DNA of 64,000 nt from the IMG/VR virus record IMGVR_UViG_3300012277_000001, positions 186,001-250,000 of that record. One strand, written 5' to 3'. This DNA is from an uncultured virus (IMG/VR IMGVR_UViG_3300012277_000001) (lineage: Duplodnaviria; Heunggongvirae; Uroviricota; Caudoviricetes). A program made the translations under genes and the position numbers. How positions within the stretch are numbered: position 1 is the stretch's first letter; each line of letters starts with the position of its first letter. The notes below the pieces were generated by a model. The model was not told where the DNA came from and did not search any database. It saw only the letters and a program-made list of their open reading frames with translations. Positions 8,695 to 63,870 of the stretch are shown piece by piece.

Positions 8695-10868
8695 TGGATC
8701 TTTCCACTATCGAAGCGGGTCTGCTGTACACCATCAAAGGCGAGCCGGGTAAAACCCTTACCTATTACGGTGATCAACTGCGCATGTCGCATACCCACCT
8801 GACCCGTGCGCTGGAAAAGCTGGTGCGTGCTGGGTATGTCGAGCGCAACGACAACAAGCTGACGATTTCTGATTCGTTCCAGAAAAAGGAAGCGGAAGCC
8901 GAGGAAGTAGCAGAGGTAGTGGAAATCCCTGAACCTGTTGTTGAGGTAAAGGTAGAACCTGTTAAAAGCATCGGTGAAAAGATTTTTGAACAGGCGGCCG
9001 AATCGGCACCGAAACACCCGCCCGTAACTTCCATGGAATTGCAAAAACTGCTGGCCGACGGTGTGCCGCGCACTGCACTGCAAATCGCAATGCACTTCGG
9101 TTACAACCGTGGCACCGCCGTTGCGCAAGTGCTGCGCAATATGTGCAACGCGAACGTGATGGTAAAAGACGGCCCGCTCTACACGCTGAAGCATGAGCCG
9201 AATACTGTTGCCGTGAAAGACGTTGCCAAAGCTGAGGCTGTACCTGACGAAAAAGCAGAACATGAATTGACCGACCTCGAATTGAGCGAAGCAATTCTGC
9301 GTATGCGTGAACCGTTCACCGCCGACCATTGCTTCTCGGTTATGCAGCGGCGCCACAAGCTGGATCGTGCACGGTTCCTAGACATTTTCGAGGCGGTGGC
9401 TTTCTCTGGTAAATTCCTAGCATGGGATGGCCAAGAATTCGTCGATCCTACTGTGGATTATTCACCGGCCCACACGTTCGTCGTGGCCAACGTTGTAGAC
9501 GCCAAAGAATCCATCAGCCTCATGGATTCCTACTGCCAGAAACTCAAAGGCCCTTACAAGCTTTTCGAGGTTGTGAGCACCACGCGCCTGCCTCCGTCTG
9601 AAGTGTTGGCTTACTTCGCAGACATGAATTACTTCACCCGCGATATCAACAATATCCACCACGGAAACTTCGCGCCGCATTACCCGAACCGCAAGGAACG
9701 GCAGGCGTTGAAAAAAGGCCCGGTGGCCAAGCCCTACGCCCGCCTCGAAACGCTGGATCAAGAAAGCGTCAAGCGCTTCATGCTGGGCGGTGTGGCGGTT
9801 GATACGTTCATCAAACGTTTCAACCTCGACCCTTCCGAAAAAGCCCGCCTCATTGAACTTCTGGTGGCCACCAATTTGGCTCGCCACGAACAGGAAAATG
9901 ATTGGATTTTCCTGCGTGATGATGTGGAAATGGAACGTGTCAAACTGGGCGATTACGACGAACCTGAAATCGAGTTGCCCGCCGACCATTTGTTGAACGA
10001 CGAATTGTCGGAAGTGGTGGTCGCCTGCATCGAAGAGGAAGAGCGGCTAAAAGTCGGCCCACTGACTGCACCGACCGGCCAGTCACCTCGCGTGTGGAGC
10101 GAACAGGAAAAAACCTCGTTAGTTGCAGCGCTGAAGGAAGTTGTGACAGCCGAAGAAACTGCCCCGCTTCCTGACCTGATGATTATGTCGCGTGAGTTCG
10201 CGGAAGATATCGGCATTCCGGTTGACGAATTGCCACACCAGAATGCGGACGGCACTTTCGAATTCCGTGCAGAAGATATTGGCAATCTCACTGCGATTCC
10301 TGATGGTATATTCAACCAGCTGGTCGATTCCTTTGTCGGTAGCATCCCCAGTGCGCCGGGCAACCCAGCCGTTATGTCCCAAGGCTTGTGTATCATGAGT
10401 CGGGAAGAGTACGAAAAGGTAAAAGCTGCGGGGGCCAACGTTGTGATGCGCGATGCAGTTCCTAACACTGACAACGTTTATGTTTGGATTGGCCCCGGCC
10501 AGCAAACGGAAGACGTTTTCTCTAACGGGGATATCGGCAACGATCATTTCATGGACGACGACGCAGATACTACCGCCTGCGAAGGCTGCGATCACCACTG
10601 CTGTATCTGCACCGAAGAAACCAACGATACCTGCGGCGATTGCGGAGCCGGTGCCAACGATGAATGTATCTGTAAACAATCAGTAGGCCCCGCTATGAAA
10701 TCACCGGGAGTGCCCGCAACAGAAGGCATGGAACATTTCAAAGGTTTCAGCCCTGATCCACGTTGGATGGTAATGTTGCAAATGCTGGAAGAGCGCCTGC
10801 GCTTCGAGCACCAGCCAACGACAGCCAACCAACTCAAAGAAATTCGTGAGTATTTGGAAACCCAATGA
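8691..10868 (+). CDS. Large hypothetical protein with N-terminal winged-helix-like repeats and a Cys-rich C-terminal region
   Basis: HTH-like segments (HLTRALEKLVRAGYVER; VAQVLRNMCNANVMVKDG); CEGCDHHCCIC...CGDC. Confidence 0.6.
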   Translation: MMDLSTIEAGLLYTIKGEPGKTLTYYGDQLRMSHTHLTRALEKLVRAGYVERNDNKLTISDSFQKKEAEAEEVAEVVEIPEPVVEVKVEPVKSIGEKIFEQAAESAPKHPPVTSMELQKLLADGVPRTALQIAMHFGYNRGTAVAQVLRNMCNANVMVKDGPLYTLKHEPNTVAVKDVAKAEAVPDEKAEHELTDLELSEAILRMREPFTADHCFSVMQRRHKLDRARFLDIFEAVAFSGKFLAWDGQEFVDPTVDYSPAHTFVVANVVDAKESISLMDSYCQKLKGPYKLFEVVSTTRLPPSEVLAYFADMNYFTRDINNIHHGNFAPHYPNRKERQALKKGPVAKPYARLETLDQESVKRFMLGGVAVDTFIKRFNLDPSEKARLIELLVATNLARHEQENDWIFLRDDVEMERVKLGDYDEPEIELPADHLLNDELSEVVVACIEEEERLKVGPLTAPTGQSPRVWSEQEKTSLVAALKEVVTAEETAPLPDLMIMSREFAEDIGIPVDELPHQNADGTFEFRAEDIGNLTAIPDGIFNQLVDSFVGSIPSAPGNPAVMSQGLCIMSREEYEKVKAAGANVVMRDAVPNTDNVYVWIGPGQQTEDVFSNGDIGNDHFMDDDADTTACEGCDHHCCICTEETNDTCGDCGAGANDECICKQSVGPAMKSPGVPATEGMEHFKGFSPDPRWMVMLQMLEERLRFEHQPTTANQLKEIREYLETQ

Positions 10869-13174
10869 TCAACATCACCAGCAGCCGTTTTAGCGGTATC
10901 GTCTCGTACAAAATGGGTGAATTTGATTTCACCAATAACTGTGGTTTGACCACGGTTACAGGACACAACCGTGACTCCCTGATTTCCAAGAATCAGAACA
11001 ACGGCGCTGGTAAATCCCTGCTGTTTTCGATGCTGGCCAACACTGCCTTCGAGCAGACGCCTATGGCCGACACGCGGAAGAAAAACCGCATTCACTCGAA
11101 AGGATCGTTCATCGAACTGACTGTGGAAAACTTGGGCCACAAGTGGACGATCCGACAGCAAGCAGGGGGTTATCAAATCTTCCGCGATGGGGAAGACCTC
11201 AAGGTCCGTGGCCAAGCCTCCCAGCGCGAACAGATTGCGAAAATTCTGCCGCTTACGCAGGAAGAGTGGTATTCGTACGTCCACCTGCAATCGCAGAAGA
11301 AACTTGAGTTCCTGTATGGCACACCGCGTGCCCGAATGACCTACATCAGCGAAGTGTGGCGCCTCGATCAATTCGATGTGCTGCGCCGCTACTTCGAAAA
11401 GAAAGTCGATGAAGTCAAGGTCGCACAAAACAAATCGGATGCCTTCAGCCACCAGCTGATGAACATCAATGATTCGTTGAACAAGAATGGCTGGAACAAG
11501 CAACTGGAAAAGGAACTGAAAGAGGCGAAGGAAATCGTCAAAACCCAGTCCAAGAAAGTTACGAAGCTTCAGACCCAGCGCCAAGAACTGAAGAGCCTCG
11601 CAAAGCAGGTCCAGTTCTACACCGAAACCAAAGACAAGCTGCAAAAGAACAAAAAGAAAATCCGCTTCGATCTATCCGAACTGAAGGAGCAGTACAAGCT
11701 GCACCAGCAGGTTGAGAAATACGAAGAGGAACGCGAAGAGTACGACCGCCGCACTAAGAAACTGGTGCGCAAGCTGGAAGAACTGGGCGATACGTCCGGG
11801 GGTGGCAAGGCCAGCAAAAAGAAAATCAAGGAACTACGGGCTGAATTGGCCAAGCTGGAAGAGGCGGACAAACGCCTTGAGAAGGTTCGCGATAAGCACG
11901 ACGCAGCTGTGCGCGAACTGGAAAACTTGGATGATCACGTGGACCCCGATCTGCGTAAGTTCTTGTCCAAGTGCAACAAAGAAAAAGTCGATCCGATGGA
12001 AGCGCTCAAAGAAGAGTATGCCGAAGCGAAATCGACAATGAAGCTGGCTGATCTGTTGCACGATCACGACGGTGGCAATTGCCCGACCTGTGCACAGAAA
12101 ATCAACCTGAAGGATTTGGAAAAATCCATTGCCAGTGCCAAGAAACGCCGTGGCAAAGCGCACTCGATGATTCACGCGCTGGAAATCCGAATTGCCAAGG
12201 AAGAGAACACGGCAATCATCAAGGATTTGCGCTTCGATGAACGTTCGTTCTACTCGGGTCGCAAGCGCATCAAGACCATTCGCGCCGAGTTGGAAAAACT
12301 CGAAGAGCAGATGGAAAACGCTGTCCGCTATGACGAACTCATGGCGCAGATGCAGGAACTGAAAAAACCGAAGGCGCCGAAGCGTAGCCCTGCCCTGTCG
12401 ATGGAAAAGATCGAACAGCAAAAGGAATACCACGACGAAGTTAAGCGCCTGAAGTTGCGCCTTGCTGAATTTGATGAAGTGCCCGAAGACGACAACATCC
12501 TGAAGCGCTTGGCTGAAGTCGAAGCGAAGCTGGAAAAGGTCGAAAAGAAATACTCCAAAGCCCACAAGGTTACGGTACGCTATAGCTCGCTGCGAGCAGA
12601 GTACAAACTGCTGACCAAGCAGCGCGAAGAAACCAGCCTGAAGATCGAAGAATTTGCACCACTGATCAAAAAGCTGAAGCGCTTCAAGATTCTGGCCAAA
12701 GCCTATTCGAACAAAGGCCTGAAACTGAATGCCATGCACGAAATCGTGTACGGGCTGGAACAGAACTACAACAAATACGCATCGCTGATTTTCGCAGAGC
12801 CATTCAAGTTCCGCGTAGAAGCCAAGGAAGACGGGGTACACATCACGGTTGACCGTGGCCAAGGTAACGTGTCTGACGTTCGTGAATTGTCGGGTGCTGA
12901 ATCCGATAGTTTCCGACTGCTGCACTTCCTCGCCTGCGTGATCATGGCCAAGGATGATCGCCGAGTTAACCTTGCGATTCTCGACGAACCGGACGCGCAC
13001 ATGGACCCGGCGACCACGCAGCTGTTTGTCGAACGTTACGTGCCATTCCTGCGCAAGCTGGTGCCTCATGTGTTCATCATCACGCAGAAGGGCAAGCACC
13101 TGCACCCGGAATGCTCTTACGTCACGGTTGAAAAATTCAAGGGGGTTTCAAATGTTCGATATGACGCTGCCTGA
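10865..13174 (+). CDS. sbcC: SbcC/Rad50-like ATPase (recombination nuclease subunit)
   Basis: Walker A NGAGKS, coiled coil with CPTC zinc hook, signature LSGAE, Walker B ILDEPD. Confidence 0.92.
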   Translation: MINITSSRFSGIVSYKMGEFDFTNNCGLTTVTGHNRDSLISKNQNNGAGKSLLFSMLANTAFEQTPMADTRKKNRIHSKGSFIELTVENLGHKWTIRQQAGGYQIFRDGEDLKVRGQASQREQIAKILPLTQEEWYSYVHLQSQKKLEFLYGTPRARMTYISEVWRLDQFDVLRRYFEKKVDEVKVAQNKSDAFSHQLMNINDSLNKNGWNKQLEKELKEAKEIVKTQSKKVTKLQTQRQELKSLAKQVQFYTETKDKLQKNKKKIRFDLSELKEQYKLHQQVEKYEEEREEYDRRTKKLVRKLEELGDTSGGGKASKKKIKELRAELAKLEEADKRLEKVRDKHDAAVRELENLDDHVDPDLRKFLSKCNKEKVDPMEALKEEYAEAKSTMKLADLLHDHDGGNCPTCAQKINLKDLEKSIASAKKRRGKAHSMIHALEIRIAKEENTAIIKDLRFDERSFYSGRKRIKTIRAELEKLEEQMENAVRYDELMAQMQELKKPKAPKRSPALSMEKIEQQKEYHDEVKRLKLRLAEFDEVPEDDNILKRLAEVEAKLEKVEKKYSKAHKVTVRYSSLRAEYKLLTKQREETSLKIEEFAPLIKKLKRFKILAKAYSNKGLKLNAMHEIVYGLEQNYNKYASLIFAEPFKFRVEAKEDGVHITVDRGQGNVSDVRELSGAESDSFRLLHFLACVIMAKDDRRVNLAILDEPDAHMDPATTQLFVERYVPFLRKLVPHVFIITQKGKHLHPECSYVTVEKFKGVSNVRYDAA

Positions 13175-13451
13175 TAACATCCACGCAAAGATCGTCAAAA
13201 ACCACGATGACTACTACGGCTGGCTTCGCGACCTAAACGTCAAAGAGGGGAACGGTGAGTGGCATACGCCACATATCGACAATGCCGATCATACTCCTAT
13301 GATTTTCCCTTGCTATGTTGGGGTGCGTGTGTACCCCGGCATCGGCTCTGTTTCTATCGTCTATAGCTTTGACATTCGTGAAGTCACCAATCTGACTTAT
13401 CATCTGTGCAAGGCTGGCGCTAAATTGGGTGACGTAATTGGCACGGTCTAA
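13152..13451 (+). CDS. Hypothetical protein
   Basis: ATG at 13152 after a GGGGG RBS-like site. Confidence 0.5.
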   Translation: MFDMTLPDNIHAKIVKNHDDYYGWLRDLNVKEGNGEWHTPHIDNADHTPMIFPCYVGVRVYPGIGSVSIVYSFDIREVTNLTYHLCKAGAKLGDVIGTV

Positions 13452-13710
13452 ACCAAAAATTCAGTGGACGTGCGAGCCGGACCATGTACAAAGTATCCGG
13501 ACGTTCACTGCTGTTCTTCCGTGGTACGGAATCGAAATCAAATCGCAGGTGCATTTGCGCGAACTCGATCTGTGCAAAGATCCGGATCTTTCGTGGGCCA
13601 TCATCGAGCAAATGACTGGCGCCATCGAAGATGCGGTGGCACGTGCCACTAAAACCATCACAGACTCACTCGACTACGACGAACTAGAGAAGGGCAGGAT
13701 TAAGGCGTAG
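13438..13710 (+). CDS. Hypothetical protein; possible HK97-capsid spine-helix-like fragment
   Basis: IKSQVHLRELDLCKDPDLSWAIIEQMTGAIEDAVARA pattern. Confidence 0.4.
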   Translation: MARSKPKIQWTCEPDHVQSIRTFTAVLPWYGIEIKSQVHLRELDLCKDPDLSWAIIEQMTGAIEDAVARATKTITDSLDYDELEKGRIKA

Positions 13711-13786
13711 CCCGGTTCTAAAAGTATGTCGAGTAAAACAGCGACCGTTTCCAACAAATGATTGACATTGCCCGAGGTAAATCCGT

Positions 13787-14020
13787 ATGAAAGACAAGAT
13801 TTTGTGGGACGTAACGTGCGATGTTTCTGGCCACTGGCGTATCTCTGGCGCAATTATGCTGGCCGTTGACGGTGGCAAAGTATTTTCCGACGTGCAATTC
13901 AAACCGGGCGACTACGACCCCAATACCTTTCTGTCCGAAGGCCTGCCCATCGCCATGGAACAGGTCGCAGACGCCGTGATCAAAGGGTATATCAAACTGA
14001 ATAAAGGTGAACCCAAATGA
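13787..14020 (+). CDS. Hypothetical protein
   Basis: GAGG RBS. Confidence 0.55.
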   Translation: MKDKILWDVTCDVSGHWRISGAIMLAVDGGKVFSDVQFKPGDYDPNTFLSEGLPIAMEQVADAVIKGYIKLNKGEPK

Positions 14021-14151
14021 AAGACGATTTGAAATTGCTGAAGTTTTCCAACCTGTACACGTTCCATCGTGCGGCCCTGAAGTTCCATGCCGAAGCGCTC
14101 GACATGACCACCAGCCTCAAGAAAAAGCTGAAGGAAAAATCCAACAAATGA
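14017..14151 (+). CDS. Small 44-aa basic protein (MKDDLKLLKFSNLYTFHRAALKFHAEALDMTTSLKKKLKEKSNK), absent from the ORF track
   Basis: ATGA overlaps at both ends (14017-14020 and 14148-14151). Confidence 0.55.
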   Translation: MKDDLKLLKFSNLYTFHRAALKFHAEALDMTTSLKKKLKEKSNK

Positions 14152-14861
14152 TTGCCTATGGTTTCGCACACACGACGCCCGACAAAGTTCTGGTGCACCT
14201 TCGTCAACTCGGGGTGCCCCGCGCAGAAATCGCGATCCTCGGGCCAGACTTCGAAGCACGCAAACACCTGATCTTTGTGGATGCCGCGAGTTTCGAAACC
14301 TACCGGGACCAAGCAGACGTGGCGGATTGCGCGTGCTACGTTTGCGACGATCCTATTTCTTTGGCACCGTTTGATTTGATGCCCGTTGATTACAAAGAAG
14401 CCGACCGCTTTCACGTTGACGGGTTCACGCTCATTGAGTTCAAAACTATTCCGGCCCCCAAGGAAGTGACGGGGCGCCGCCGTAAATTTGATGTGGTAGA
14501 TTTCGCAAAGAAACATGCCGCCTCGCAGCAGACTTTCTTCACCAACTTTATGACGTGGTGCTACACCATGCCATCGGAAACGCACCAGCTTCCGGTACGT
14601 CAACTTGCGTGCAAGTGGTTGGCGTCTAAAGAGACTTACCGCCAGCTGAATAATCGAATCGAAAAGCTGCGCAAAACCGTCTACCTGACCGATAAGCAGG
14701 CGGAACGTCTGGTTGAATTGCTAAGCACCGAAACCGTTGACGTGTACCGCACCGCCCTGCAAATGGATGGCGACGAAGACGAAGTGGCACACAAGCTGAA
14801 AATCAGTGCCTACGAAATGCGCTACATCCGCGCAATCAACCGAGGGGCCGCCGAGCAATGA
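14148..14861 (+). CDS. Hypothetical protein with a C-terminal HTH-like segment
   Basis: Likely start MIAYGF at an ATGA overlap; EVAHKLKISAYEMRYI. Confidence 0.65.
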   Translation: MIAYGFAHTTPDKVLVHLRQLGVPRAEIAILGPDFEARKHLIFVDAASFETYRDQADVADCACYVCDDPISLAPFDLMPVDYKEADRFHVDGFTLIEFKTIPAPKEVTGRRRKFDVVDFAKKHAASQQTFFTNFMTWCYTMPSETHQLPVRQLACKWLASKETYRQLNNRIEKLRKTVYLTDKQAERLVELLSTETVDVYRTALQMDGDEDEVAHKLKISAYEMRYIRAINRGAAEQ

Positions 14862-15106
14862 GCAAACCTGCACGATCCCCGCGCAACGCCACGCATGCAC
14901 ACAACTTCAACAGCTACAACGCCGAGCAATTTTTCTGGCGCTGTGGTCGTCGCGTGTATGAATTTTCCTTGGGCCGTCACCAATGGTTTCTGACCAAACA
15001 CAAACCAGAAATTCTGTCGAAGTGTAAACCACTCAATGTGTTTGAAATGCACCCCGACACGGCCCGTGAATTGCTGACCCGTAGAGGAATGTATGAGCAA
15101 CGGTGA
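14858..15106 (+). CDS. Hypothetical protein
   Basis: ATGA overlap; PRNATH motif. Confidence 0.5.
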   Translation: MSKPARSPRNATHAHNFNSYNAEQFFWRCGRRVYEFSLGRHQWFLTKHKPEILSKCKPLNVFEMHPDTARELLTRRGMYEQR

Positions 15107-15374
15107 AGATCGCCCAAACTACGAAAAACTCAAAAGCTGGTTGTACATCGTACGCACGCAAGCCGGTTTCCGCCAAGCAGTGAAAGAATATTCCGGTCCC
15201 GATTTCGATATGGGTTATCTGCGTGGCTTTCCACAATCTTATCCGGCACTCGTTATGTTTTCGGACGGCTACGAAGGCTATCACTTCACAGAAGCCAGCT
15301 GTATTCCGATCAACGAATTGACGGCCAAAATCGCTGAGCACGAAGCGAAGTACGGGAACAAAAACGATGCGTGA
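15093..15374 (+). CDS. Hypothetical protein
   Basis: GAGGA RBS. Confidence 0.55.
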   Translation: MSNGEDRPNYEKLKSWLYIVRTQAGFRQAVKEYSGPDFDMGYLRGFPQSYPALVMFSDGYEGYHFTEASCIPINELTAKIAEHEAKYGNKNDA

Positions 15375-15939
15375 TTACGAAGTGGTCTGTAACGAAACCA
15401 ACAACAGCCCGGAAGATATCGACAACAACGTGTTGAACATGGATATTGTTGGGCACTTTCCGCTGGTTGGTTGGAAAGAAACCGATATTTCCACCGGCAA
15501 ACTCGATGCGGGTCCGTTGGTGTTGCCGTCCCACACAGGGCCGCGTGGCTGGTATGGTCCGATTGGTAGCAAGAAATTCAAAATGCTGATGGTCATGCCT
15601 TCTGACTATCCGTGGATCTTGCCCGCCCGCCCATACAAGGAAGTCCGGGGCGATCAAGCTTTTGAAGGCGGCCCGAAAAACCCCGAAATCCAACTGACGG
15701 GTATGCTCGGGACCATTACGGGTGTGCAGATTCATACCGACTGCCGCGTCGGTGCAAAAACGCCACGTTACACGTACGCTATGAAGTACAACAAACGCGG
15801 GGTCGAGGTCACAGTTTTCGACCACGAAGAACAAGGTCATTTCTATATCTACCAATATCGTTCTGCACGCGAGGCCCGCACCGAGTTCAAGGCCCACGGC
15901 GTACAGCCAATCTTCCGCTACAAAGGTAAACGCAAATGA
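15367..15939 (+). CDS. Mosaic protein: tail-sheath C-terminal hairpin motif, capsid-like segment and basic module
   Basis: DYEVVCNETNNSPEDIDNNVLNMDI matches sheath DWETICDERNNKPADIANNDIILDF in this window. Confidence 0.6.
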   Translation: MRDYEVVCNETNNSPEDIDNNVLNMDIVGHFPLVGWKETDISTGKLDAGPLVLPSHTGPRGWYGPIGSKKFKMLMVMPSDYPWILPARPYKEVRGDQAFEGGPKNPEIQLTGMLGTITGVQIHTDCRVGAKTPRYTYAMKYNKRGVEVTVFDHEEQGHFYIYQYRSAREARTEFKAHGVQPIFRYKGKRK

Positions 15940-16214
15940 CGAATAAATCTGTATGGGAAGATTTGTTTAGCCCGGAAGAAGCGCCCGCGCTGCGCCTGCG
16001 TTCGGTCATGTTGCATCGCATCACTGACAAGGTGCTTAGCTGGGGCCAGAATCCAGAACTGATTAGCCAGAAGTTGGAAATCTCGGTTGAGCGTCTGCGC
16101 ACTATGCTGGCCGGACACCTCGACCTCTTCAGCTACGATGATTTGGTGGCCATGTTGCCGCGTGCAGGCCTCGATTTGGAAACCGTTATGCGGGAAGGGG
16201 TGCGCCGGTGCTGA
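15936..16214 (+). CDS. XRE-family HTH protein (HTH_37/HigA2-like)
   Basis: LRLRSVMLHRI...ISQKLEISVERLRTMLAGHLDLFSYDDLVAML. Confidence 0.65.
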   Translation: MTNKSVWEDLFSPEEAPALRLRSVMLHRITDKVLSWGQNPELISQKLEISVERLRTMLAGHLDLFSYDDLVAMLPRAGLDLETVMREGVRRC

Positions 16215-16618
16215 AACTCGCTGAAGGTTTTTCCAATTACGGCAAGCAGAGCACGCCGCAATCGTGGACCGTCAATTTCGACAACTTCCCAAGCGGCATG
16301 AAATATCCGCCGCTCGAAATCAAAGTTGCTGCCCCGGAACTACGCCCAGTACAGCTGGATTTTGCTGTCACCGAAACTTCGTCGGATCTGTGCGAAAATC
16401 CCGATATGCAGCTAGTGAAATGGTTGCAGGATTGGGCAACGTTGGCCAAATCCCATAACGACGCCCCACGCTTCACCGTCGATTCCGGGCGCAAAGGTGT
16501 GACCGTTACGTTTGCCAATGCACCGATGTTGCAGCTGTGGTTTCGTTCCCGTCGTCTGGCCAAAGTCTACGCCAAAAAGCACGACGTTTCCTTTTCGCAC
16601 ATGAGTCCCGCCCAATGA
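16208..16618 (+). CDS. Hypothetical protein: possible tail-tube-like N-terminus plus basic WFRSRRLA module
   Basis: QSWTVNFDNFPSG...VTET...LVKWLQDW; GVTVTF...WFRSRRLA. Confidence 0.5.
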   Translation: MLKLAEGFSNYGKQSTPQSWTVNFDNFPSGMKYPPLEIKVAAPELRPVQLDFAVTETSSDLCENPDMQLVKWLQDWATLAKSHNDAPRFTVDSGRKGVTVTFANAPMLQLWFRSRRLAKVYAKKHDVSFSHMSPAQ

Positions 16619-17241
16619 AGAAAATGTACATCGCAGTTTTGGACGAAGCGCCGGATTACATGGTGCCTACGCTGGTTGCCCACTCGGTGATGAACGCCCA
16701 CGATTTTTTCAAATCGCCCGGTCGTTCGGATGCACAGCGTGCGTGGTACTCTGACTGGAACATAAATTCGTTCCGCAAAGTCGTGGTGAAAGTTCCGGGC
16801 ACTGTGTTCGATAAAATCCACGCGACTTTGGATTGCTGGGCCGGTCACGAAAATACCATCTGCAACGGCGCTACTACCTGCCTTGTGGTGAATCCAGTCG
16901 AATCCGACGACGTACCGAAGCCGCTGCAATATGCACAGCTGTGGAAACCTGCACAACCCGCCCATATCACGGACGACTGGATTGCAGAAAATCTGCCCGC
17001 TCATATCAGTATGATGCTCGATAGCGTGCCCATCGGTCTAGATGCATCTATGCGTAGCACGATTCACCGATATGCTGAATTGATTTCTGCAATTCGCATT
17101 GGTTATTACCGCGTGTGCGAAGGCGATACGCTTTCGCATATTGGCATGTACACCGGCGCCGATTGGCGCGAACTTGCACGCATCAACAATCTGAAAAATC
17201 CTGACCTGATTTATCCGGGCCAGCTGATTAAACTTCGTTAA
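16615..17241 (+). CDS. Peptidyl-tRNA hydrolase 2 (Pth2)-like domain fused to a C-terminal LysM domain
   Basis: KMYIAV...VAHSV...W...SFRKVVVKV...TTCLVVNP; YRVCEGDTLSHIG...LARINNLKNPDLIYPGQLIKL. Confidence 0.65.
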   Translation: MKKMYIAVLDEAPDYMVPTLVAHSVMNAHDFFKSPGRSDAQRAWYSDWNINSFRKVVVKVPGTVFDKIHATLDCWAGHENTICNGATTCLVVNPVESDDVPKPLQYAQLWKPAQPAHITDDWIAENLPAHISMMLDSVPIGLDASMRSTIHRYAELISAIRIGYYRVCEGDTLSHIGMYTGADWRELARINNLKNPDLIYPGQLIKLR

Positions 17242-17250
17242 GGAATCCAG

Positions 17251-17577
17251 ATGAATGCAGTGACAGATGATATCCAAGAATCGGCTGACGAAATCGAACA
17301 GTTAGCCGAGCAGCTGGACCCGCTGGATCGTGATATTTTCTTCACGCGTTGTGCAATGAACAGTGACCACAAACTGGTCTATACCGAAATGTGGTTCGAA
17401 CGTGCGAACGCCCGCGACTTCGCGATTTACGCAGTGACGCAAGGTGATACGTTGCAGGAAATTCACGCACGTTTCCAGCTTTCTATCAGCGTGAAGCGAC
17501 TTGCATTCATCAACAACATTTCGGACCCGAGCAATCCACCTCTTGGCCTGCTGATTACCCTCAAGGATGTAAAATGA
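17251..17577 (+). CDS. LysM-domain protein
   Basis: YAVTQGDTLQEIHARF...LAFINNISDP. Confidence 0.65.
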   Translation: MNAVTDDIQESADEIEQLAEQLDPLDRDIFFTRCAMNSDHKLVYTEMWFERANARDFAIYAVTQGDTLQEIHARFQLSISVKRLAFINNISDPSNPPLGLLITLKDVK

Positions 17578-18047
17578 CCGACACTGAAGATTTGCTCACT
17601 GTTCCTAGCACCGTAAATGCACTGGATCGCATCGTACTGCGCCAGTCCGTACAGCATCTGCAACAGCAAATCGCAACTAGCCTTAGTGAAGCAGTGAGCG
17701 AAAGTTTGTTCGATAAAACTCCGCAAGAAATGATAGCCCGGTGCGATGCCATGCTGGCGGATATGCATGAGAAAAAACTGATTGGTGCCGACCTGAAGGC
17801 CATCGACTCGAAAATCTGCACGAAGTACGAAATCCACGACGACAAAAATCGCTGCCTCGTTCGCCTCATGGACGAAAACGATAGCGATATCAAATTCATC
17901 TGGTTACGCGGTCGTCGCAAGGCACACAAGATTGGTCGCCAGCATATCGGTTCCGTCTACCTTGCGTTCTCTGCTGTACCTGTCCCATTGAAACGGGTTG
18001 TCTTTCAAGTGCAGGTTGAGACAAAGCCACGGGAGTTCCGTCACTGA
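17574..18047 (+). CDS. Tail-sheath C-terminal-domain-like protein with an inserted basic module
   Basis: NALDRIVLR and PVPLKRVVF align by eye with sheath SGFQNVNVRR and PSIPAKRASL. Confidence 0.55.
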   Translation: MTDTEDLLTVPSTVNALDRIVLRQSVQHLQQQIATSLSEAVSESLFDKTPQEMIARCDAMLADMHEKKLIGADLKAIDSKICTKYEIHDDKNRCLVRLMDENDSDIKFIWLRGRRKAHKIGRQHIGSVYLAFSAVPVPLKRVVFQVQVETKPREFRH

Positions 18048-18349
18048 TGGCAACTGTAAATACAATGAAGCGTGAGCTTTTCGTCTTGATCATCAATCAT
18101 CTGGAACGGGAAGCACGGCCCGCAACGCAGGGCTTGAAAGGTAGCGCGAAACAGCAGGCATTTCGCAAGTATGTGAACGACCGTTATCTGCACATCGGTC
18201 GCCCGCTGAATCTCGAATTCACTCCATTTTTCCAGTTGGATGACCCACTGGACGAACACGAAAAGATGCTCGAATCCGATCTGGATGTTCTGATTGGTAT
18301 CGCATCGAAACTCGGTTACGTTCTGGAAATCAACTGGTCCCGTCGTTAG
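18047..18349 (+). CDS. Hypothetical protein
   Basis: ORF directly upstream of sbcD. Confidence 0.5.
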   Translation: MATVNTMKRELFVLIINHLEREARPATQGLKGSAKQQAFRKYVNDRYLHIGRPLNLEFTPFFQLDDPLDEHEKMLESDLDVLIGIASKLGYVLEINWSRR

Positions 18350-18358
18350 GAAACCATT

Positions 18359-19405
18359 GTGGCAAAACAATTTGAAGCCGTTTTCACCTCGGACTGGCAT
18401 TTGACCGGTTTGAATAAACATTTCCAAGATGCAGATGATCGCATCCTGTCCGAAGGCCGGAAAATCTTTCAGTACGCGCTGAATAACGGCATCAAATACG
18501 TGATCATTCCGGGTGACATTTCCGATCATCCGTTCCTGCCTTACGACACGTACACCAGCCTGTTCAACCTGTTCTACGAATACGACAAACTGCTGACCAT
18601 TATCTACGTGGCAGGCAACCATGATTTCGAGAATATCGAAAACATGTCCATGAATTTCATGCGTCGTTTGTCCAAGACCAAAGCCTTCAAGAACCTGCGT
18701 ATTGTGCTCAAGCCTGAGCGTATCGAAATCGAAGGTGTGCCGGTCAACCTGCTGCCGTATCCATGCTTGAAAACTCTGTCGAAAAAGCAGGGTGCTCTGA
18801 ACGTTGCCCACGTTGAATATACCGGGGCCGTGGGCGACAATGGCCGTACGCTTAAAACCAAGCACGAACTGGAGTCGCACAAAAACGATTTCACCATTAG
18901 CGGGCACATTCACCAATATCAGTACATGGAAAAGAAACGTGCCATTTACTGCGGTAATCCGTTCCAAAAGAACTTCGGTGAAACCAGCGTTAAAGGGTTT
19001 GTGCATGCACGCGTAATTCTGAATGGCGACCGTGTGGATGTTGAGCACAAATTCGTCGAGAATAAACCCGCATTTAGCTTGCAGAACATTCACATTAAAG
19101 ACCTGAATGATTACAAAAAGCTGAAGCATGATTCGAATATCCGATACAAGCTGCATATTGATCCGGATATTCCGGTTCCTGCCGATATCATGCTGCAATA
19201 CCCGAATATCACGGGCGGTATTGTTTATACCGCTGGTAAAGGTAAAGACGTGGCAGAAATTGAAACGCTGAAGATTGAGCGTGCCGATATTGACCCTATG
19301 TTTGGGTTGGCGTCTTTCCTTGGGGCTGAAGGGTTGACCGAAAAAGAAATTCAAATGACGATTAAAGAGGCCAAAAAGGCCCAAAACGCCTGCGGTTTTT
19401 CCTGA
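18359..19405 (+). CDS. sbcD: SbcD/Mre11-like metallophosphoesterase nuclease
   Basis: TSDWH, PGDI, AGNHD and SGHIH motifs; AGGA RBS. Confidence 0.92.
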   Translation: MAKQFEAVFTSDWHLTGLNKHFQDADDRILSEGRKIFQYALNNGIKYVIIPGDISDHPFLPYDTYTSLFNLFYEYDKLLTIIYVAGNHDFENIENMSMNFMRRLSKTKAFKNLRIVLKPERIEIEGVPVNLLPYPCLKTLSKKQGALNVAHVEYTGAVGDNGRTLKTKHELESHKNDFTISGHIHQYQYMEKKRAIYCGNPFQKNFGETSVKGFVHARVILNGDRVDVEHKFVENKPAFSLQNIHIKDLNDYKKLKHDSNIRYKLHIDPDIPVPADIMLQYPNITGGIVYTAGKGKDVAEIETLKIERADIDPMFGLASFLGAEGLTEKEIQMTIKEAKKAQNACGFS

Positions 19406-19458: not shown

Positions 19459-19530
19459 TATTAGTTGGTCGGGCATCGCGGCGCTGCGATTAAGGCCTTC
19501 TACTTAAACCTTCAATCGAGGATCACCCCG

Positions 19531-20916
19531 ATGGTCATGAAAGCCGTCCAAAAGGACAAAAGCGTCGAGGCTGTTAAAGCTCGCAAAAAGGCGAAGGTTA
19601 GCCGTCGCCAGAACAAGCACAAAATCAACAAGGCTGCCAAACAGCGTTACGCGAAAATGACTCCGAAAGAGAAACTGGAGTTCCATGCGCGTCAACAGTT
19701 CACCAAGGCCATGCGCCACGGTGCAACCGAAGCTGAAGCCAAGAAAATCGTTGCTGCATGGAAAAAGCGCCGTAAACAGCGTGAATCCGGTTCCCATGCT
19801 GCTGCCCAGCGCCGCGATGCCCACGCCGCCCAGCGTCAAATCCGTGCGCAGCTGAGCCGCAAATCGGATGCCCTGAGCACCCAACACAAAAAAGCACTTC
19901 AGGCCATCAAAGCCAAAGGCAAAACTCCTGCTGCTCGCGCTCAACTGCGTGCCAAGGAAAAAGCCCGTTACGCCGACGCCCGCAAAGCGCTGGCCGCCGA
20001 GCGCATGAAGGCTACCGGTGCTCACAAAAAGGCTCTGAGCAAGATCAAAGCGAAAGGCAAATTCTCGCTGAAATCCATGATCGGCAACTACAAAGAGAAG
20101 CCGATTTCCAGCCAAGGTAAGCGTCTGGTGGATACCGCCAAGAAAGCTGCCCAAGCTGACGTAGCAAAAATCGCCAACAAGCATTTCGGCGGCGCCAAGA
20201 AAAAGGCTCCACGTAAACCGAAAGCTGCTGCCGCTCCTGCCGCTGCCCCGGCCACTCCTGCCGCCCCAGCCCAAAAGCTGAACAAAGACGGTAGCGTTGC
20301 CAAAAAACGCGGTCGCAAACCGAAGTCTGAAACCGCTGCTGCCCCGGCTGCGAAAGCACCTGCCAAGGCGCCGACCAAAAAGGCCGCTGCCAAGAAAGCC
20401 GAAGCCGCTCCTGCGCCGAAGCTGAACAAAGACGGTAGCGTTGCCAAAAAACGTGGTCGTAAGCCGAAGTCGGAAACTGCCGCCGCTCCTGCCGCTCCTG
20501 CTAAAAAGGCTCCGGCCAAAAAAGCAGCCGCGAAAAAAGCTGATGCTGCCCCGGCACAAAAGCTGAACAAGGATGGTAGCGTACCGAAGAAACGCGGTCG
20601 TAAGCCGAAGTCCGAAACCGCTGCTACCCCAGCTGCAAAAGCGCCAGCTAAGGCTCCAAAAGCCAAAGCAGCCAAAGCAGCCAAAGCACCGGCCAAGGCC
20701 CCAAAAGCCAAAGCCAACGTCGAAGCGAAAGAAAAACCAGCAGCCAAAAAGCCCGCTGGTAAAACCGCTCCGAAAAACGCTCCGGCCAAAAAGCAACCGG
20801 CTACCAAGCCAGCCGCTAAAGCCGCTGCGAAAAAACCGGTGAAACAACCTGCTTCGGCTGCGAAAGCACCGGGCAAGAAAACCGGCGGCGCCGTACCGAA
20901 AGCCAAATTCGGTTAA
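19531..20916 (+). CDS. Histone H1-like Lys/Ala/Pro-rich DNA-binding protein with three AT-hook-like repeats
   Basis: GAGGA RBS before ATG at 19531; extreme K/A content; 3 x KLNKDGSV.KKRGRKPKSETAA. Confidence 0.8.
   Translation: MVMKAVQKDKSVEAVKARKKAKVSRRQNKHKINKAAKQRYAKMTPKEKLEFHARQQFTKAMRHGATEAEAKKIVAAWKKRRKQRESGSHAAAQRRDAHAAQRQIRAQLSRKSDALSTQHKKALQAIKAKGKTPAARAQLRAKEKARYADARKALAAERMKATGAHKKALSKIKAKGKFSLKSMIGNYKEKPISSQGKRLVDTAKKAAQADVAKIANKHFGGAKKKAPRKPKAAAAPAAAPATPAAPAQKLNKDGSVAKKRGRKPKSETAAAPAAKAPAKAPTKKAAAKKAEAAPAPKLNKDGSVAKKRGRKPKSETAAAPAAPAKKAPAKKAAAKKADAAPAQKLNKDGSVPKKRGRKPKSETAATPAAKAPAKAPKAKAAKAAKAPAKAPKAKANVEAKEKPAAKKPAGKTAPKNAPAKKQPATKPAAKAAAKKPVKQPASAAKAPGKKTGGAVPKAKFG
20275..20630 (+). 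repeat. Three imperfect direct repeats (about 65-bp conserved core, about 143-bp period) inside the H1-like gene
   Basis: aagctgaacaa(a/g)ga(c/t)ggtagcgt...cg(c/t)ggtcg(c/t)aa(a/g)ccgaagtc at about 20275, 20419 and 20560. Confidence 0.9.
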
Positions 20917-47331: not shown

Positions 47332-48972
47332 ATGGCTTTTACCAACACCAGCGCTGGTGTTTATGATCAGGATCGCGACGTAAGTCAACGCGGTTCGACG
47401 GTCATTAGCTCCATTGCGGCAGCCGTAATCGAATCGCCACGCGGTTCGTCCACTGAATGGGTTTACGTGACGGACAAGCAGGATCTGCTTGAAAAATTCG
47501 GCACCAAAAACTATTCCAAATACGGGTACGGCATGCATTGCGCCGAACACGTTCTTACCCAAACCGCAATGTGGATCAAGCGCGTTGTTAACGCTGCTAC
47601 TTCCCGCACTGCTGGCGCCTACCTTTCGGTGGACGACACGACCGCGCTGGAGCCAGTTATCAAACTGGTTTGCTTCGATGACGGCACCAACAAACCGCAG
47701 GGGGTTTTGGGCGATCCGCTGAAGACCCTCGGTTTCCCCATTTCGGATGCGGGGGTTAAAAACGCCCTGCTGTACGTTTGCGCGAATTCCGCTGGTGAAT
47801 GGGCGCGTGCAATCAGCGTTCGTATTCGCCCGGCCAACCCCGAAGGCACCGAGGTTGGCGAGTTCAACGATCCGTACCATTTCTACCTCGACGTTTTCGT
47901 CAATTACACCGGTTCTTCCAGCGTGCCGGTTGAATCGTATCTTTGCAGCCGCAAATACGAAGTCGATGGCGAAGGGAACCAGATGTTTGTCGAGTCGCGT
48001 GTAAATGCATTCTCGAAATACATCAAGGTGAAAAACAACAGCCTTTGCCCGCAGGTTGAAATTCGCACCACCGCGTTCGAATACCTCGACGGCGGCGATG
48101 ACGGCGAGCGCGCTACCACCGCTGAAATCAACAACGCGTGGGAAGGCATCGACGACACCGACCAGTACGCGGTTCAATTGCTGGTTGCTTGCGGTTACGA
48201 ACACGAACAAACCGTACGCCGCATGAACGTTGTTGCCGCTAATCGTGGTGACGCGATTGCGATCAACGATTTGCCGTTCGAAATGCAGGAAGTTTCGCGT
48301 GCTGTTAACTGGCGCCGCAACATCCTCAACCTGAGTTCCAGCTACTCGGCACTGTACGGCCCGCGTGGTCAAATCACCGACGACGTTTCGGGCAAGAAAT
48401 TCTGGTGCCCGATTTCCGGTTTGGTTGCTGCACAGTATGCGTACACTGACCGCGTGCGTGCCTACTACTGGGCGCCTGCCGGTATCAACCGGGGTCAAGT
48501 GAAAGTCACCGATTTGTCGAAGAAATACAGCCTGCGTGAACGCAATGCGCTGGAACAATCGCAAATCAACTACGTGCGCCGGATTCCGGGGCGTGGTTAC
48601 GTGATCATGGAACAAATGACGCTGCAAAACTTCGCTTCTGGTTTCCAGAACGTGAACGTGCGCCGTCTGGTAAACGGCATCAAAGCCATGATTCGCCGTG
48701 CGTTCCTGCCATCGGTATTCAACCCTGCCGATGATTTCGAACGCAAACAGCTGAAAAACATCGTGGACGCTGAAGCCCGTTCGGTTAAGCAAGGTCGTGG
48801 TCTGTACGATTGGGAAACCATCTGCGACGAACGAAACAACAAACCGGCGGATATCGCGAACAACGATATCATTTTGGATTTCGTGATCGACCCGAGCATT
48901 CCGGCGAAGCGTGCATCCCTGACCGCCGATATCCGCAATTTCGGCTCTTCCATCGAATTCAAAGAGAACTAA
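47332..48972 (+). CDS. Contractile tail sheath protein
   Basis: SAGVYDQDRD, WAPAGINRG, NVNVRRL, CDERNN motifs of T4 gp18-like sheaths. Confidence 0.93.
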   Translation: MAFTNTSAGVYDQDRDVSQRGSTVISSIAAAVIESPRGSSTEWVYVTDKQDLLEKFGTKNYSKYGYGMHCAEHVLTQTAMWIKRVVNAATSRTAGAYLSVDDTTALEPVIKLVCFDDGTNKPQGVLGDPLKTLGFPISDAGVKNALLYVCANSAGEWARAISVRIRPANPEGTEVGEFNDPYHFYLDVFVNYTGSSSVPVESYLCSRKYEVDGEGNQMFVESRVNAFSKYIKVKNNSLCPQVEIRTTAFEYLDGGDDGERATTAEINNAWEGIDDTDQYAVQLLVACGYEHEQTVRRMNVVAANRGDAIAINDLPFEMQEVSRAVNWRRNILNLSSSYSALYGPRGQITDDVSGKKFWCPISGLVAAQYAYTDRVRAYYWAPAGINRGQVKVTDLSKKYSLRERNALEQSQINYVRRIPGRGYVIMEQMTLQNFASGFQNVNVRRLVNGIKAMIRRAFLPSVFNPADDFERKQLKNIVDAEARSVKQGRGLYDWETICDERNNKPADIANNDIILDFVIDPSIPAKRASLTADIRNFGSSIEFKEN

Positions 48973-61902: not shown

Positions 61903-63870
61903 ATGTCGAAACGAAATTCGCGCCTGCGCGGCATCGTCGTTATGGCTGACAACCAAGAGCAAGCAGTGGAACATTTCAGTGCTGTCGCTTCCGGCGAATA
62001 TCGCGTATTGGAAAGTAAAGATGGCACTTACGCCATCGCTACCGCCAACACCGATATGTCCCTATTGAATCCTCTCGATGGGGAAGAAATGGTGGCAGTT
62101 GCGGAAGACGAAAAACACGAAATGGTAGCGACCGCATCCGCCGATGGCGATATGGACGCTTTCTATCAGGCTTGTTCCAGTGGTTGCGGCGCACACGTTA
62201 TCTCGGACGTTGAAGAACTGCTGAGTAAATGCCCGGCTTGCGCTTCCGACCTCCCACAAATGGAAGACGCCGACTTGAAAAACAAACCACAACCGAAAGA
62301 AATGTTGGTTGCTGTTGCTGCCACTCGCGCCGAGGCTATCGAAGCTTTCCGTGCGTTGGCCAGCGGTAACTGCGAGACTTTCGCGGCCCAATGTGTTGAT
62401 AACATGGTGCTGTCCAACCAGCCCGTGAATTTCGACATTTTCAAAGCCACCGCCGCCGAACAGGTTGCAGACTACGTGCCTCAACTGGCCGTTGCGTCCG
62501 CCCTTGAAGACGGCAAAATGAAAGTGCACTATCTGGTAACTGCCAGCGATGACGGTCCAGAAATGCACATCATTTCGAACAGCGACAAAGCGATTTTCTG
62601 CCCGGTAACTTCGATGGGTCTGATCGACCCTGAAGACGAATTCACCGAAGAACAGAAAGCCGTTGCGTCTGCTGACTTCGCCGCTACCGCTTCGGATGAT
62701 GAAGAGGAAGAGGAAGAAGAGGAAGAAGACGACGACTTCGAGGACGACGAAGAGGAAGAAGAGGAAGAGGAAGAAGAGGAAGAAGACGATTCGGACGACG
62801 AAGACGAAGACGACGATGATCTGTCGTTGGGCCTCGCTGCTGCTGAAAAACCAGCGAAAAAAGGCGGCGTAAAACGCAAGGTGAAACCGACCATGGCTAC
62901 CGCAAGTACCCAGCCGGAAACCGGCGCTGCCGCTGTTCAAGCAGGCACCGAAGAAAACGTTCAAACCGAACAAACCAACGTTGCGCAAACTGGCGAACAA
63001 GCCACTGCCAACACCGAAACCCAAACCGAGCAAACCGCTGCGGCTGTTCAAGCGCAAACCGAACAAACTCCGGTTGAAGTTTCTGCTTCGTTCGTTTCCA
63101 TCGCGTCCAACGACATGAAGGAAAAATCTGTTGACGTTAATTATGTAGGTAACGTCAAAGGCGAAGCGACTTGGGTTGCTTTCCACGACGGTATTCCGTT
63201 CGCCAAAGCTGTTGCTTCGGCTGCTGAAAACCCAGCGCAATTCGCTGACCCTTCTTTTGGCCGCGCTTTCAAAGCAGTTGCAGCCGAACAGGGTGTTGCT
63301 CAAGCAATCGAGCAATTCCGTTTCGAAGAAATCAAACCTGTGATGCAAGTTGAACAGGTTGTGGCTGAACAAATCCAGTCGCAGGTTGCCGAGCAAACTG
63401 CTGTGCTGGCCCAAGCTTCCGCCAAAGATCAATCGGAACTCGCGGATCGTTTCATGACCGCCATGGCGACCGCTGCTCACGGCATTACCACTGGTTATTT
63501 CCGTGACACTTCGAACCCGATCATGTCGGCTCTGGCTTCCACTCTGGAATCCGTAGGCCTGCAAGGTGCCGAAGACCTGTTGCAACGTGCGTTCCTCGAT
63601 CACTCGCCGGAATACCACAAAGCAATTCTGGCAAAAGCCAGCGAAATCCTGAAATACGATGCCGTCGTGCAAAATCAGATGGCAACTGCTGTAACCCAAA
63701 TCGAACCGAAAAATGTGGTTGCGACCGCTTCTTCGATTTCGGTGGGCCGCCCGGTTCAAGCTCCGGTGCAAGTGCAAAACAAGGAAAGCGAACTCGCTAC
63801 CGCTTCGGCGCAGCAGTCGCAGCCTTCCAACTTCCAATCCAAGCTGCAAGGCTTGAAACTGTTCCGCTAA
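61903..63870 (+). CDS. Putative prohead core/scaffold protein with a poly-acidic tract and more than 10 A-x-A-S-type motifs
   Basis: GGAG RBS; TAATTTT upstream; long D/E tract; lies between the protease and the downstream head gene. Confidence 0.6.
   Translation: MSKRNSRLRGIVVMADNQEQAVEHFSAVASGEYRVLESKDGTYAIATANTDMSLLNPLDGEEMVAVAEDEKHEMVATASADGDMDAFYQACSSGCGAHVISDVEELLSKCPACASDLPQMEDADLKNKPQPKEMLVAVAATRAEAIEAFRALASGNCETFAAQCVDNMVLSNQPVNFDIFKATAAEQVADYVPQLAVASALEDGKMKVHYLVTASDDGPEMHIISNSDKAIFCPVTSMGLIDPEDEFTEEQKAVASADFAATASDDEEEEEEEEEDDDFEDDEEEEEEEEEEEEDDSDDEDEDDDDLSLGLAAAEKPAKKGGVKRKVKPTMATASTQPETGAAAVQAGTEENVQTEQTNVAQTGEQATANTETQTEQTAAAVQAQTEQTPVEVSASFVSIASNDMKEKSVDVNYVGNVKGEATWVAFHDGIPFAKAVASAAENPAQFADPSFGRAFKAVAAEQGVAQAIEQFRFEEIKPVMQVEQVVAEQIQSQVAEQTAVLAQASAKDQSELADRFMTAMATAAHGITTGYFRDTSNPIMSALASTLESVGLQGAEDLLQRAFLDHSPEYHKAILAKASEILKYDAVVQNQMATAVTQIEPKNVVATASSISVGRPVQAPVQVQNKESELATASAQQSQPSNFQSKLQGLKLFR

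Follow-up and report, generated by a model that had tools for sequence, protein, structure and literature searches.

The stretch analysed here, a window of 64,000 nucleotides (bases 186001-250000) of the 307,943-bp genome of a Lu11-like jumbo Pseudomonas phage (G000), carries ~5.2 kb of small open reading frames (ORFs) between the genes sbcC (10865-13174) and sbcD (18359-19405). Thirteen plus-strand ORFs, named below by their start positions, fill this island with ends that overlap or abut, in agreement with the ~5 kb island described in a first-pass annotation of the window. By sequence, the island is a tandem array of small accessory proteins composed in part of pieces of virion proteins. 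ORFs 17574, 16208 and 15367 carry predicted pieces homologous to the tail sheath's C-terminal domain (CTD), and 15367 carries a capsid-like segment in addition. The first-pass annotation had regarded the island in general as made of virion-protein fragments; this holds for these three ORFs and not for the other 10 of the 13, which have no virion-protein likeness.

The closest named relatives of the phage are Pseudomonas phage HRDY3 (79% nucleotide identity across 42% of the island) and Lu11. Six further relatives were taken from IMG/VR (L003-L009), with L007 being Lu11 itself and L004 and L008 being the same as L003 at the protein level. The distinct genomes counted were thus seven, i.e., the window phage, HRDY3, Lu11, the L003 type, L005, L006 and L009. 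Genome-wide ORF comparisons covered the 2044 ORFs of the window phage genome.

Sheath-like pieces in ORFs 17574, 15367 and 16208

The reference for these comparisons is tail sheath protein A (47332-48972, plus strand; phrog_23 E 2e-67, T4 gp18 E 5.5e-26), the source-like partner of the pieces described below, whose CTD spans about amino acids (aa) 428-546. ORF 17574 (17574-18047, plus strand) encodes a 157-aa protein that is a predicted free-standing homolog of this domain. The first-pass annotation had aligned the two by eye on both sides of a hairpin, and profile comparison confirms the relation, which is visible to profiles only: BLASTP of 17574 against sheath A gave no match (E 0.91). When a 7-sequence 17574 family was compared with a 6-sequence sheath alignment by hhalign, the two aligned over 105 columns with Prob 81% and E 1.2e-5. 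In 45 column shuffles the highest score was 21.2, against 44.4 observed, and reversing the alignment gave 14.2. A search of 1.84 billion representatives with the family profile recovered 24 clusters of 94-257 aa at E<=0.001, with no long sheath protein among them. With 25 family sequences, the comparison with the sheaths reached Prob 92.7% and E 4.4e-7 over 104 columns (17574 aa 14-152 against sheath A 435-538).

The same profile points to sheath proteins of other systems. In a PDB sequence search, sheath proteins were the top 8 of the 11 rows at E<=1, namely four T4-type gp18 proteins (4.7e-5 to 5.2e-4) followed by Afp2, Pvc2, a PVC sheath and Pvc3 (0.15-0.4). The Pfam family Phage_sheath_1C (PF17482) was matched at E<=1 by 10 of the 25 family members (best 4.6e-5), and not by the window 17574 protein itself. 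In six-frame whole-genome searches, the profile matched the sheath of the more distant phage PaBG (4.5e-6) and sheath A of the window phage (0.010); searches of viral contigs and metagenomes with single distant family proteins found nothing. Homologs of 17574 occur in all seven related genomes and in PaBG, where the family member gp050 (NC_022096.1 27524-27985) lies two genes from a DprA-like gene, outside the sbcC-sbcD gap.

The 17574 family retains the sheath helix 'INVRRL', the next helix and the terminal strands 'LxFxxxPxxxKR'. The NNxP hairpin loop of the sheath is replaced by a basic insertion of ~30 residues, predicted as two strands and a helix, which carries LRGRRKAHKIGR; R115 is invariant in the family and R114 nearly so. 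The family is basic, with a median isoelectric point (pI) of 9.2, and tube protein 1 is acidic (pI 5.1). A full sheath architecture, with N-terminal and middle domains and terminal arms, is not present in 17574, which aligns to sheath A 435-538 only.

Structural evidence for 17574 is consistent with sheath homology, though weak. Its AF2 model has a pLDDT of 66 overall and of 82-90 in the core. In a VIA structure search, the model matched the phiKZ sheath C-terminus with Z 5.1 (root-mean-square deviation, rmsd, 9.2; 96 aa), among many unrelated rows of similar Z. Further matches were the C-terminal part (residues 387-495) of the Mu chain 9khy_a, which we take to be the sheath (Z 5.0, rmsd 5.8, 90 aa), the phiCD508 sheath (Z 4.3), and 6gj1_D, a 121-aa chain of a type VI secretion system (T6SS) baseplate that we take to be TssE (Z 4.3, rmsd 3.7, 85 residues); two other small baseplate chains followed at Z 4.0. 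A second PDB structure search returned one phiKZ chain (Z 4.5) among unrelated folds, and Foldseek against the PDB gave no match at E<=0.001, the best being an AXH domain (0.012). A BFVD search found family members only, including one PaBG protein.

Another piece of the sheath CTD occurs in ORF 15367 (15367-15939, plus strand), which encodes a 190-aa mosaic protein of sheath hairpin, capsid-like segment and basic module. Its aa 3-28 (15373-15450, plus strand), YEVVCNETNNSPEDIDNNVLNMDIVG, form a sheath-type beta-hairpin tag that matches sheath A aa 493-518. The first-pass annotation had seen this match to the phage's own sheath, which is confirmed here. Aligned pairwise, 15367 aa 1-28 and sheath A aa 491-518 are identical at 13 of 28 positions (E 2e-6), and the hairpin is the sole BLASTP match between an island protein and a structural protein at E<=0.01 (E 0.001). 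Over those 26 residues there is also a match to phrog_10581, a tail-sheath family of PHROG (E 0.0039), a database-wide hhsearch gave E 0.012, and the sheath used as query in two related genomes recovered the island motif with E 1.2e-5 and 1e-4. We also searched whole genomes in six frames with a 33-column hairpin profile built from five phages. In the window genome, this profile matched itself and sheath A aa 493-518 only (E 7e-9), and the outcome was the same in genome G001 (E 7.7e-10); in Lu11, it matched sheath A (1.1e-7) and sheath B (2.2e-4).

The hairpin is conserved as a peptide and not as DNA, with many synonymous changes across the 7 phages. Between Lu11 and L005, 19 of the 26 residues are identical, and 13 of those 19 are encoded by different codons. 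Judged by these comparisons, purifying selection on the canonical hairpin tag is strong at the peptide level. Its context, on the other hand, differs among the phages. In Lu11, L006 and L009, the hairpin forms the N-terminus of a helix-turn-helix (HTH) protein of the HTH_37 type. In the window, this HTH protein is encoded by a separate ORF (15936-16214, plus strand), a 92-aa predicted DNA-binding protein of Xre/HigA-like type (PF13744, 29.3 bits against a cut-off of 27; phrog_2339 E 4.3e-8). In the window, HRDY3 and L005, the hairpin heads three different bodies directly upstream of the HTH gene, and the L003 type has it as an ORF of 61 aa, ~320 bases upstream of that gene. Linkage or fusion of hairpin and HTH_37 is therefore found in 7 of the 7 distinct genomes (fused in three, on an upstream ORF in four). 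L006 and L009 also encode a homolog of the 15367 body without the tag. In PaBG, the hairpin is borne at aa 160-185 of gp195, an unrelated, non-sheath protein of 224 aa (NC_022096.1 241632-242306), with an E value (5.2e-7) better than those of the matches to PaBG's own sheaths. By this distribution, the hairpin behaves as a portable tag.

These data bear on whether the copied pieces are mere relics, i.e., remnants that illegitimate recombination with structural genes left in fast-evolving ORFs and to which no function is linked. Relics would fit a gap that is a hotspot whose cargo differs between phages, including an HNH endonuclease in PaBG, and also the middle of 15367, which is not conserved among the window, HRDY3 and L005. 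We nevertheless consider this explanation very improbable, given that the hairpin peptide is conserved across divergent relatives despite abundant synonymous change and that invariant residues run through the 24 clusters of the 17574 family. Moreover, the tag is not a recent copy, because in the alignments its resemblance to the phage's own sheath does not exceed that to T4 gp18, where the equivalent motif is 'YEYRVVCDTTNNTPSVIDRNEFVATFYI'.

A third element, the basic module 'RSxRxA/RGRRKA', is common to 15367, 16208 and 17574, as the first-pass annotation had stated. The pattern [FYWL][RK][SG].R.A[RKHQ], which was derived from those same three ORFs, occurs in 3 of the 2044 genome ORFs, all three in the island. 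In 15367, the module is a basic beta-beta-alpha element (aa 135-177; 15769-15897, plus strand) modelled as three strands and a helix with a pLDDT of about 64-79. ORF 16208 (16208-16618, plus strand; 136 aa) has an unassigned N-terminal half, and the basic module at its C-terminus (16469-16582) is a homolog of the 17574 family. Profile comparison linked the 17574 and 16208 families with E 7.3e-5 (2.8e-4 with a 13-sequence 16208 profile, in the module only), 15367 and the 16208 family module with E 0.0015, and, weakly, 15367 and the 17574 family with E 0.012. When the genome was searched in six frames with the profile of the 17574 family, exactly four places were found at E<=0.1, i.e., 17574 (8e-50), sheath A (0.010) and the modules of 16208 (0.0074) and 15367 (0.038). 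PaBG gp050 carries 'HARSARHAARLVRK', which bridges both motif variants. In L006 (8809-9273) and L009 (8965-9369), an extra ORF ending in an FRSLRLARV module lies upstream of the 15367-body homolog; these two phages have four tandem module-bearing genes, the window has three, and Lu11 has fewer.

The chemistry of the module raises the possibility of an exaptation, in which the sheath-derived fold would be reused off the tail as a small basic DNA- or RNA-binding domain working with the repair genes or the HTH regulator. The most conserved residues are the arginines in RGRRKAxKxGR / RSxRxA, the 17574 family has the high median pI given above, and the neighbours are SbcC/SbcD and an HTH protein in the Lu11-like phages and a DprA-like gene in PaBG. 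The modelled module of three-strand sheet and helix is also weakly AP2-like, but with Z 3.9-4.1 it is no more so than many unrelated small folds, and an AP2 fold is not claimed. Against such a reuse, no nucleic-acid-binding family in Pfam, NCBIfam or PHROGs matched 15367, 16208 or 17574, and purifying selection acts strongly on the canonical hairpin tag. In addition, the sheath helix motif INVRRL and the C-terminal strands LxFxxxPxxxKR are kept across the family, suggesting that the ancestral contacts still matter. We regard an exaptation of this kind as possible, if somewhat doubtful.

Capsid and tube comparisons and the other genes of the island

Between its hairpin and its basic module, 15367 carries the capsid-like segment (aa 105-129; 15679-15753, plus strand), detected by hhalign against a 20-sequence profile of the major capsid protein, which is encoded just outside the window (genome positions 250660-251766). 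With this profile, aa 105-129 align to capsid aa 274-299 with Prob 75% and E 2.5e-5, while thinner profiles gave P 0.0013 (three sequences) and 0.0009 (single sequence). The match extends over 22-26 columns ('EIQLTGMLGTITGVQIHTDCR' against 'DLALNGQLGTLVGLQLLTDGFR') and lies in a stretch that is among the most conserved of the capsid family, with invariant columns. The score of 40.7 was attained by none of 40 shuffles, the highest of which gave 21.7, and P was 0.13-0.62 for the remaining 12 island families against the capsid. No Pfam capsid family matched 15367 at E<=10. Among its nearest named clusters in the ESM Atlas was Phage_capsid_2 with a score of 0.95, which shares only 147 features and serves as a lead only. 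The AF2 model of 15367 is poor (pLDDT 46), and a wide VIA structure search with it gave a best Z of 4.5 (PH-like), with neither capsid nor sheath among the matches.

The first-pass annotation had suggested capsid likeness for the middle of 15367, which these comparisons support, and also for ORF 13438, for which they do not: hhalign of 13438 against the capsid protein gave P 0.7, 0.74 and 0.58, and there was no Pfam or PHROG match. The suggestion that 16208 resembles the N-terminus of the tail tube was likewise not sustained. Shallow profiles gave P 0.0089, comparison with one tube sequence yielded P 0.0029 across 76 colinear columns, and among about 436 entries 16208 came third for the tube profile. 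With a 13-sequence profile, however, P falls to 0.083, and 16208 had no PDB match at E<=10 and no ESM Atlas match. A 77-aa ORF on the minus strand elsewhere in the genome (126763-126996) contains the short helix motif, around 'L.DW', that is common to the tube profile and the 16208 family. Because this ORF outranked or tied 16208 in the hhsearch lists, the motif is suggested to be promiscuous. Of the three virion proteins that the first-pass annotation had named for comparison, profile similarity was found to the sheath and to the capsid, and was not sustained to the tube. Nor did hhalign show any match of the island families to gp25, to a virion structural protein of 245 aa, to a protein of 260 aa or to the tail protein of 213 aa.

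Two further island proteins carry LysM, a generic peptidoglycan-binding domain, again as previously annotated. ORF 16615 (16615-17241, plus strand) encodes a 208-aa protein with a C-terminal LysM (PF01476, 35.8 bits against a cut-off of 20.9; E 7.7e-9), to which its PDB sequence matches at E<0.01 are confined, and an N-terminal phrog_5822 domain (E 6.5e-46). This conserved domain comprises the ~115 N-terminal residues (16615-16960), has no Pfam or PDB sequence match, and may be PTH2-like. Homologs of 16615 are labelled 'endolysin' in HRDY3 and Lu11. In 16615 only LysM and phrog_5822 were detected, and no catalytic domain behind the label was recognisable in Pfam, PHROG, NCBIfam or PDB sequence searches. 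ORF 17251 (17251-17577, plus strand) encodes a 108-aa acidic protein with a borderline LysM (21.0 bits against 20.9; hhsearch to the LysM of 16615, E 0.0017).

Among the remaining plus-strand ORFs, the best conserved is 14148 (14148-14861), which encodes a 237-aa core protein of phrog_18876 (E 2.9e-77) with 60-87% identity in all relatives. Its longest open frame begins at a GTG at 14007 and overlaps the preceding ORF; the true start is probably the ATG at 14148, since the proteins of all relatives align from residue 48. ORF 13152 (13152-13451; 99 aa, function unassigned) has homologs in all relatives examined and no family match. ORF 18047 (18047-18349; 100 aa) is kept in 5 of 6 relatives and absent from Lu11, and has no family matches. 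ORF 14858 (14858-15106; 82 aa, basic) has homologs in HRDY3, L003 and L005 and a weak match to a SprT C-terminal domain (E 0.003), far under the cut-off. Narrower distributions were found for 13438 (13438-13710; 90 aa), with a homolog in HRDY3 only, and for 15093 (15093-15374; 93 aa), with one in L009 only. ORF 13787 (13787-14020; 77 aa) is an orphan without a homolog in the relatives and with a sub-threshold match to DUF4025 (19.8 bits against a cut-off of 25). Apart from 14148, these ORFs were assigned to no family, and NCBIfam and PADLOC scans of the island returned nothing relevant.

No step in base composition was detected in the island, and scans for sigma-70 promoters and terminators gave no excess over shuffles. 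A candidate middle/late promoter motif lies at 18054-18069 (plus strand), with 3 mismatches to a motif annotated in Lu11. This single match is not significant alone, as at least one also occurred in 20 of 100 shuffles; it is syntenic with the Lu11 annotation, directly after the 17574 homolog.

The left border of the island is formed by an sbcC-like ATPase gene (10865-13174, plus strand; phrog_77 E 1.8e-65), with 91% identity to the SbcC-like protein of HRDY3, and the right border by an sbcD-like nuclease gene (18359-19405, plus strand; phrog_100 E 1.8e-35, Metallophos E 1.1e-9). The first-pass annotation had called these genes normally adjacent. They are not so in this phage group, because all relatives carry genes in the gap, with variable content: the Lu11 gap holds six genes, and that of PaBG three unrelated ones, i.e., a 212-aa hypothetical protein, a DHH phosphoesterase and an HNH endonuclease. 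PaBG gp195 sits in a region with small regulators, outside this gap (gp195 and gp050 are loci L039 and L038). Directly after sbcD, the window encodes a very basic, Ala/Lys/Pro-rich protein of 483 aa (19465-20916, plus strand), whose translation contains three near-identical repeats with 'LNKDGSVAKKRGRKPKSETAA', AT-hook- or histone-H1-like in appearance; its homologs also come after sbcD in HRDY3 and Lu11. Further downstream, a 655-aa ATPase (61903-63870; phrog_20988) corresponds to a region of HRDY3 (226749-228724) annotated as two separate ATPase genes, either a real split or a difference in annotation.

Possible roles of the sheath-derived proteins

The phage encodes two sheath paralogs. Sheath A lies among replication genes, beside tail proteins of 213 and 776 aa that have an N-terminal domain in common. 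Sheath B, about 32% identical to A, lies outside the window (genome positions 254567-256159) and is followed by two tube genes. For this phage group, two tail-sheath proteins, both in the virion, are reported in work on PaBG (PMC7412058), and the two paralogs of our phage fit such a two-component sheath. A report on XM1 describes the CTD of a sheath subunit as a platform that receives, through beta-sheet augmentation, the N- and C-terminal 'handshake' strands from two subunits in the following ring, and a sheath initiator that aligns with the sheath CTD and takes the handshake strands of the first sheath ring (PMC10457771).

We hypothesize, with a probability of roughly one in three, that the free CTD-derived proteins of the island dock on the terminal strands of unassembled sheath subunits and that the hairpin tag provides a link to the HTH regulator. 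Docking would take place inside the infected cell, in the way the sheath initiator docks, and the docked proteins could hold back, nucleate or report the polymerisation of the two-component sheath. The hairpin tag would couple the polymerisation state of the sheath to the HTH regulator, and the basic module might serve as a common second contact, either with the acidic tube or with nucleic acid.

Several observations weigh against docking. The genes lie among DNA-metabolism genes and not in the tail module, next to SbcCD in the Lu11-like phages and, for gp050, near a DprA-like gene in PaBG. The 17574 protein has no canonical NNxP loop, and its best-conserved residues are arginines, which fit nucleic-acid binding as well as tube binding. 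In the window, the hairpin is not on the HTH protein, so that coupling would need separate proteins, and sheath docking leaves the capsid-like segment of 15367 unexplained. Close relatives vary in copy number and architecture, an unusual trait for core assembly factors. Finally, the structural support is weak, with all Z values below 6, no Foldseek match in the PDB at E<=0.001 and a poor model of 15367.

A more conventional role at the sheath would be that of a virion or assembly part, with 17574 acting as a second sheath initiator, a terminator or an adaptor for the two-component sheath, encoded away from the tail genes. Sheath A likewise lies among replication genes, all seven related genomes and PaBG have a 17574 homolog, and the 17574 model resembles 6gj1_D (Z 4.3), taken to be TssE. 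Two sheath proteins are also reported in the virion of this phage group (PMC7412058). However, the canonical gp25 is encoded elsewhere in the genome (108665-109051; PF04965, 28.7 bits against a cut-off of 27.2). The 17574 family showed no relation to gp25 of three phages by hhalign (P 0.28) and no PF04965 match. Besides, paralogs vary in number, and the tag occurs fused to a transcription-factor domain. The PaBG proteome table from gel electrophoresis (SDS-PAGE; PMC7412058) comprises 14 bands, among which small proteins may have been missed. Taken together, a role of 17574 as a virion part appears improbable.

The capsid-like segment is the observation for which docking does not account, and it bears on the idea of decoys or poisons put forward in the first-pass annotation. 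Here, the fragments would titrate host sensors of structural proteins, or would cap contractile machines during their assembly, whether these belong to competing phages or to the host (R-type pyocins, T6SS). What has been copied are the motifs best conserved in sheath and capsid, and the proteins are of small size and unable to act as complete assembly units. The gap is a variable, accessory one, in which the number and architecture of modules differ among close relatives (three in the window, four in L006/L009, fewer in Lu11). Only decoys, unlike a pure role in sheath assembly, would explain why two virion proteins are mimicked on one polypeptide (15367). Nonetheless, such decoys are doubtful. 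We know of no defence sensor of the sheath, which counts against them, PADLOC gave no matches, and a literature search found no anti-defence by structural-protein mimics described. An early-expressed capsid epitope could also trigger, rather than blunt, an abortive-infection sensor, and neither the conserved basic module nor the HTH link is predicted by a decoy role.

A broader version would treat the island as a kit of modular mimics, each combining the copy of a virion surface with the basic module and used off the virion, with the hairpin-HTH fusions as a transcription switch. The copied surfaces would be the sheath hairpin, the sheath C-terminal platform and a capsid core segment. Such a kit might intercept host immune sensors, host contractile weapons or the assembly lines of co-infecting relatives, and the hairpin-HTH fusions of the relatives would be read out by free sheath subunits. 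We rate this combination as rather unlikely.

The folds of tail sheath and capsid are ordinarily met as building blocks only. The island is set apart by a free, conserved family of small sheath-domain proteins (24 clusters) hitherto unannotated, by a hairpin that serves as a portable tag and is fused in some phages to a transcription-factor domain, and by the presence of a capsid motif and a sheath hairpin on the same small protein. If docking on unassembled sheath subunits is correct, the island would represent a previously undescribed layer of control over contractile-tail assembly, and if a mimic role is correct, it would contain the first sequence-level structural-protein decoys. Lu11, HRDY3 and PaBG are cultivable, which makes the island amenable to experiment.

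Comparison with known systems

A literature search found no comparable system described for Phage_sheath_1C, tail-sheath defence triggers or structural-protein decoys; there are partial parallels. One is the sheath CTD itself (PF17482; T4 gp18 residues about 543-645), to which 17574 aligns over ~105 columns and with whose CD..NN.P..I..N hairpin the 15367 tag aligns. Unlike sheath proteins, 17574 stands alone without N-terminal and middle domains and is encoded between sbcC and sbcD. The sheath initiators gp25, TssE and XM1 gp15 (PF04965) are likewise small (about 130 aa) and have a fold that aligns with the sheath CTD, and the 17574 model matches 6gj1_D with the Z of 4.3 given above. It differs in that it has no sequence or profile similarity to gp25, lies outside the baseplate module, and has paralogs and a basic module.

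The phage protein DSAD1 reportedly blocks DSR2, a structural-protein-sensing defence. DSAD1-type blockers are small accessory proteins proposed or shown to interfere with the recognition of a virion protein, as proposed for the island. To our knowledge, the known blockers of such defences are not sequence copies of the sensed protein, as the island pieces would be under a decoy role. Among HTH_37/HigA-type Xre regulators, some antitoxins use a short N-terminal extension to bind a partner. The HTH_37 proteins of Lu11, L006 and L009 are similar in having a short N-terminal extension, and differ from HigA-type regulators in that the extension is a sheath hairpin, with no recognisable toxin partner, and that it is on a separate protein in the window.

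With regard to the locus, small ORFs (46.1 and 46.2) are likewise present between genes 46 and 47 of T4. The T4 46/47 gap and the sbcC-sbcD gap of PaBG both hold variable small genes between the two nuclease subunits, as the island does. The PaBG gap differs in its cargo, and a sheath-derived set in this gap is a feature of the Lu11-like phages only.

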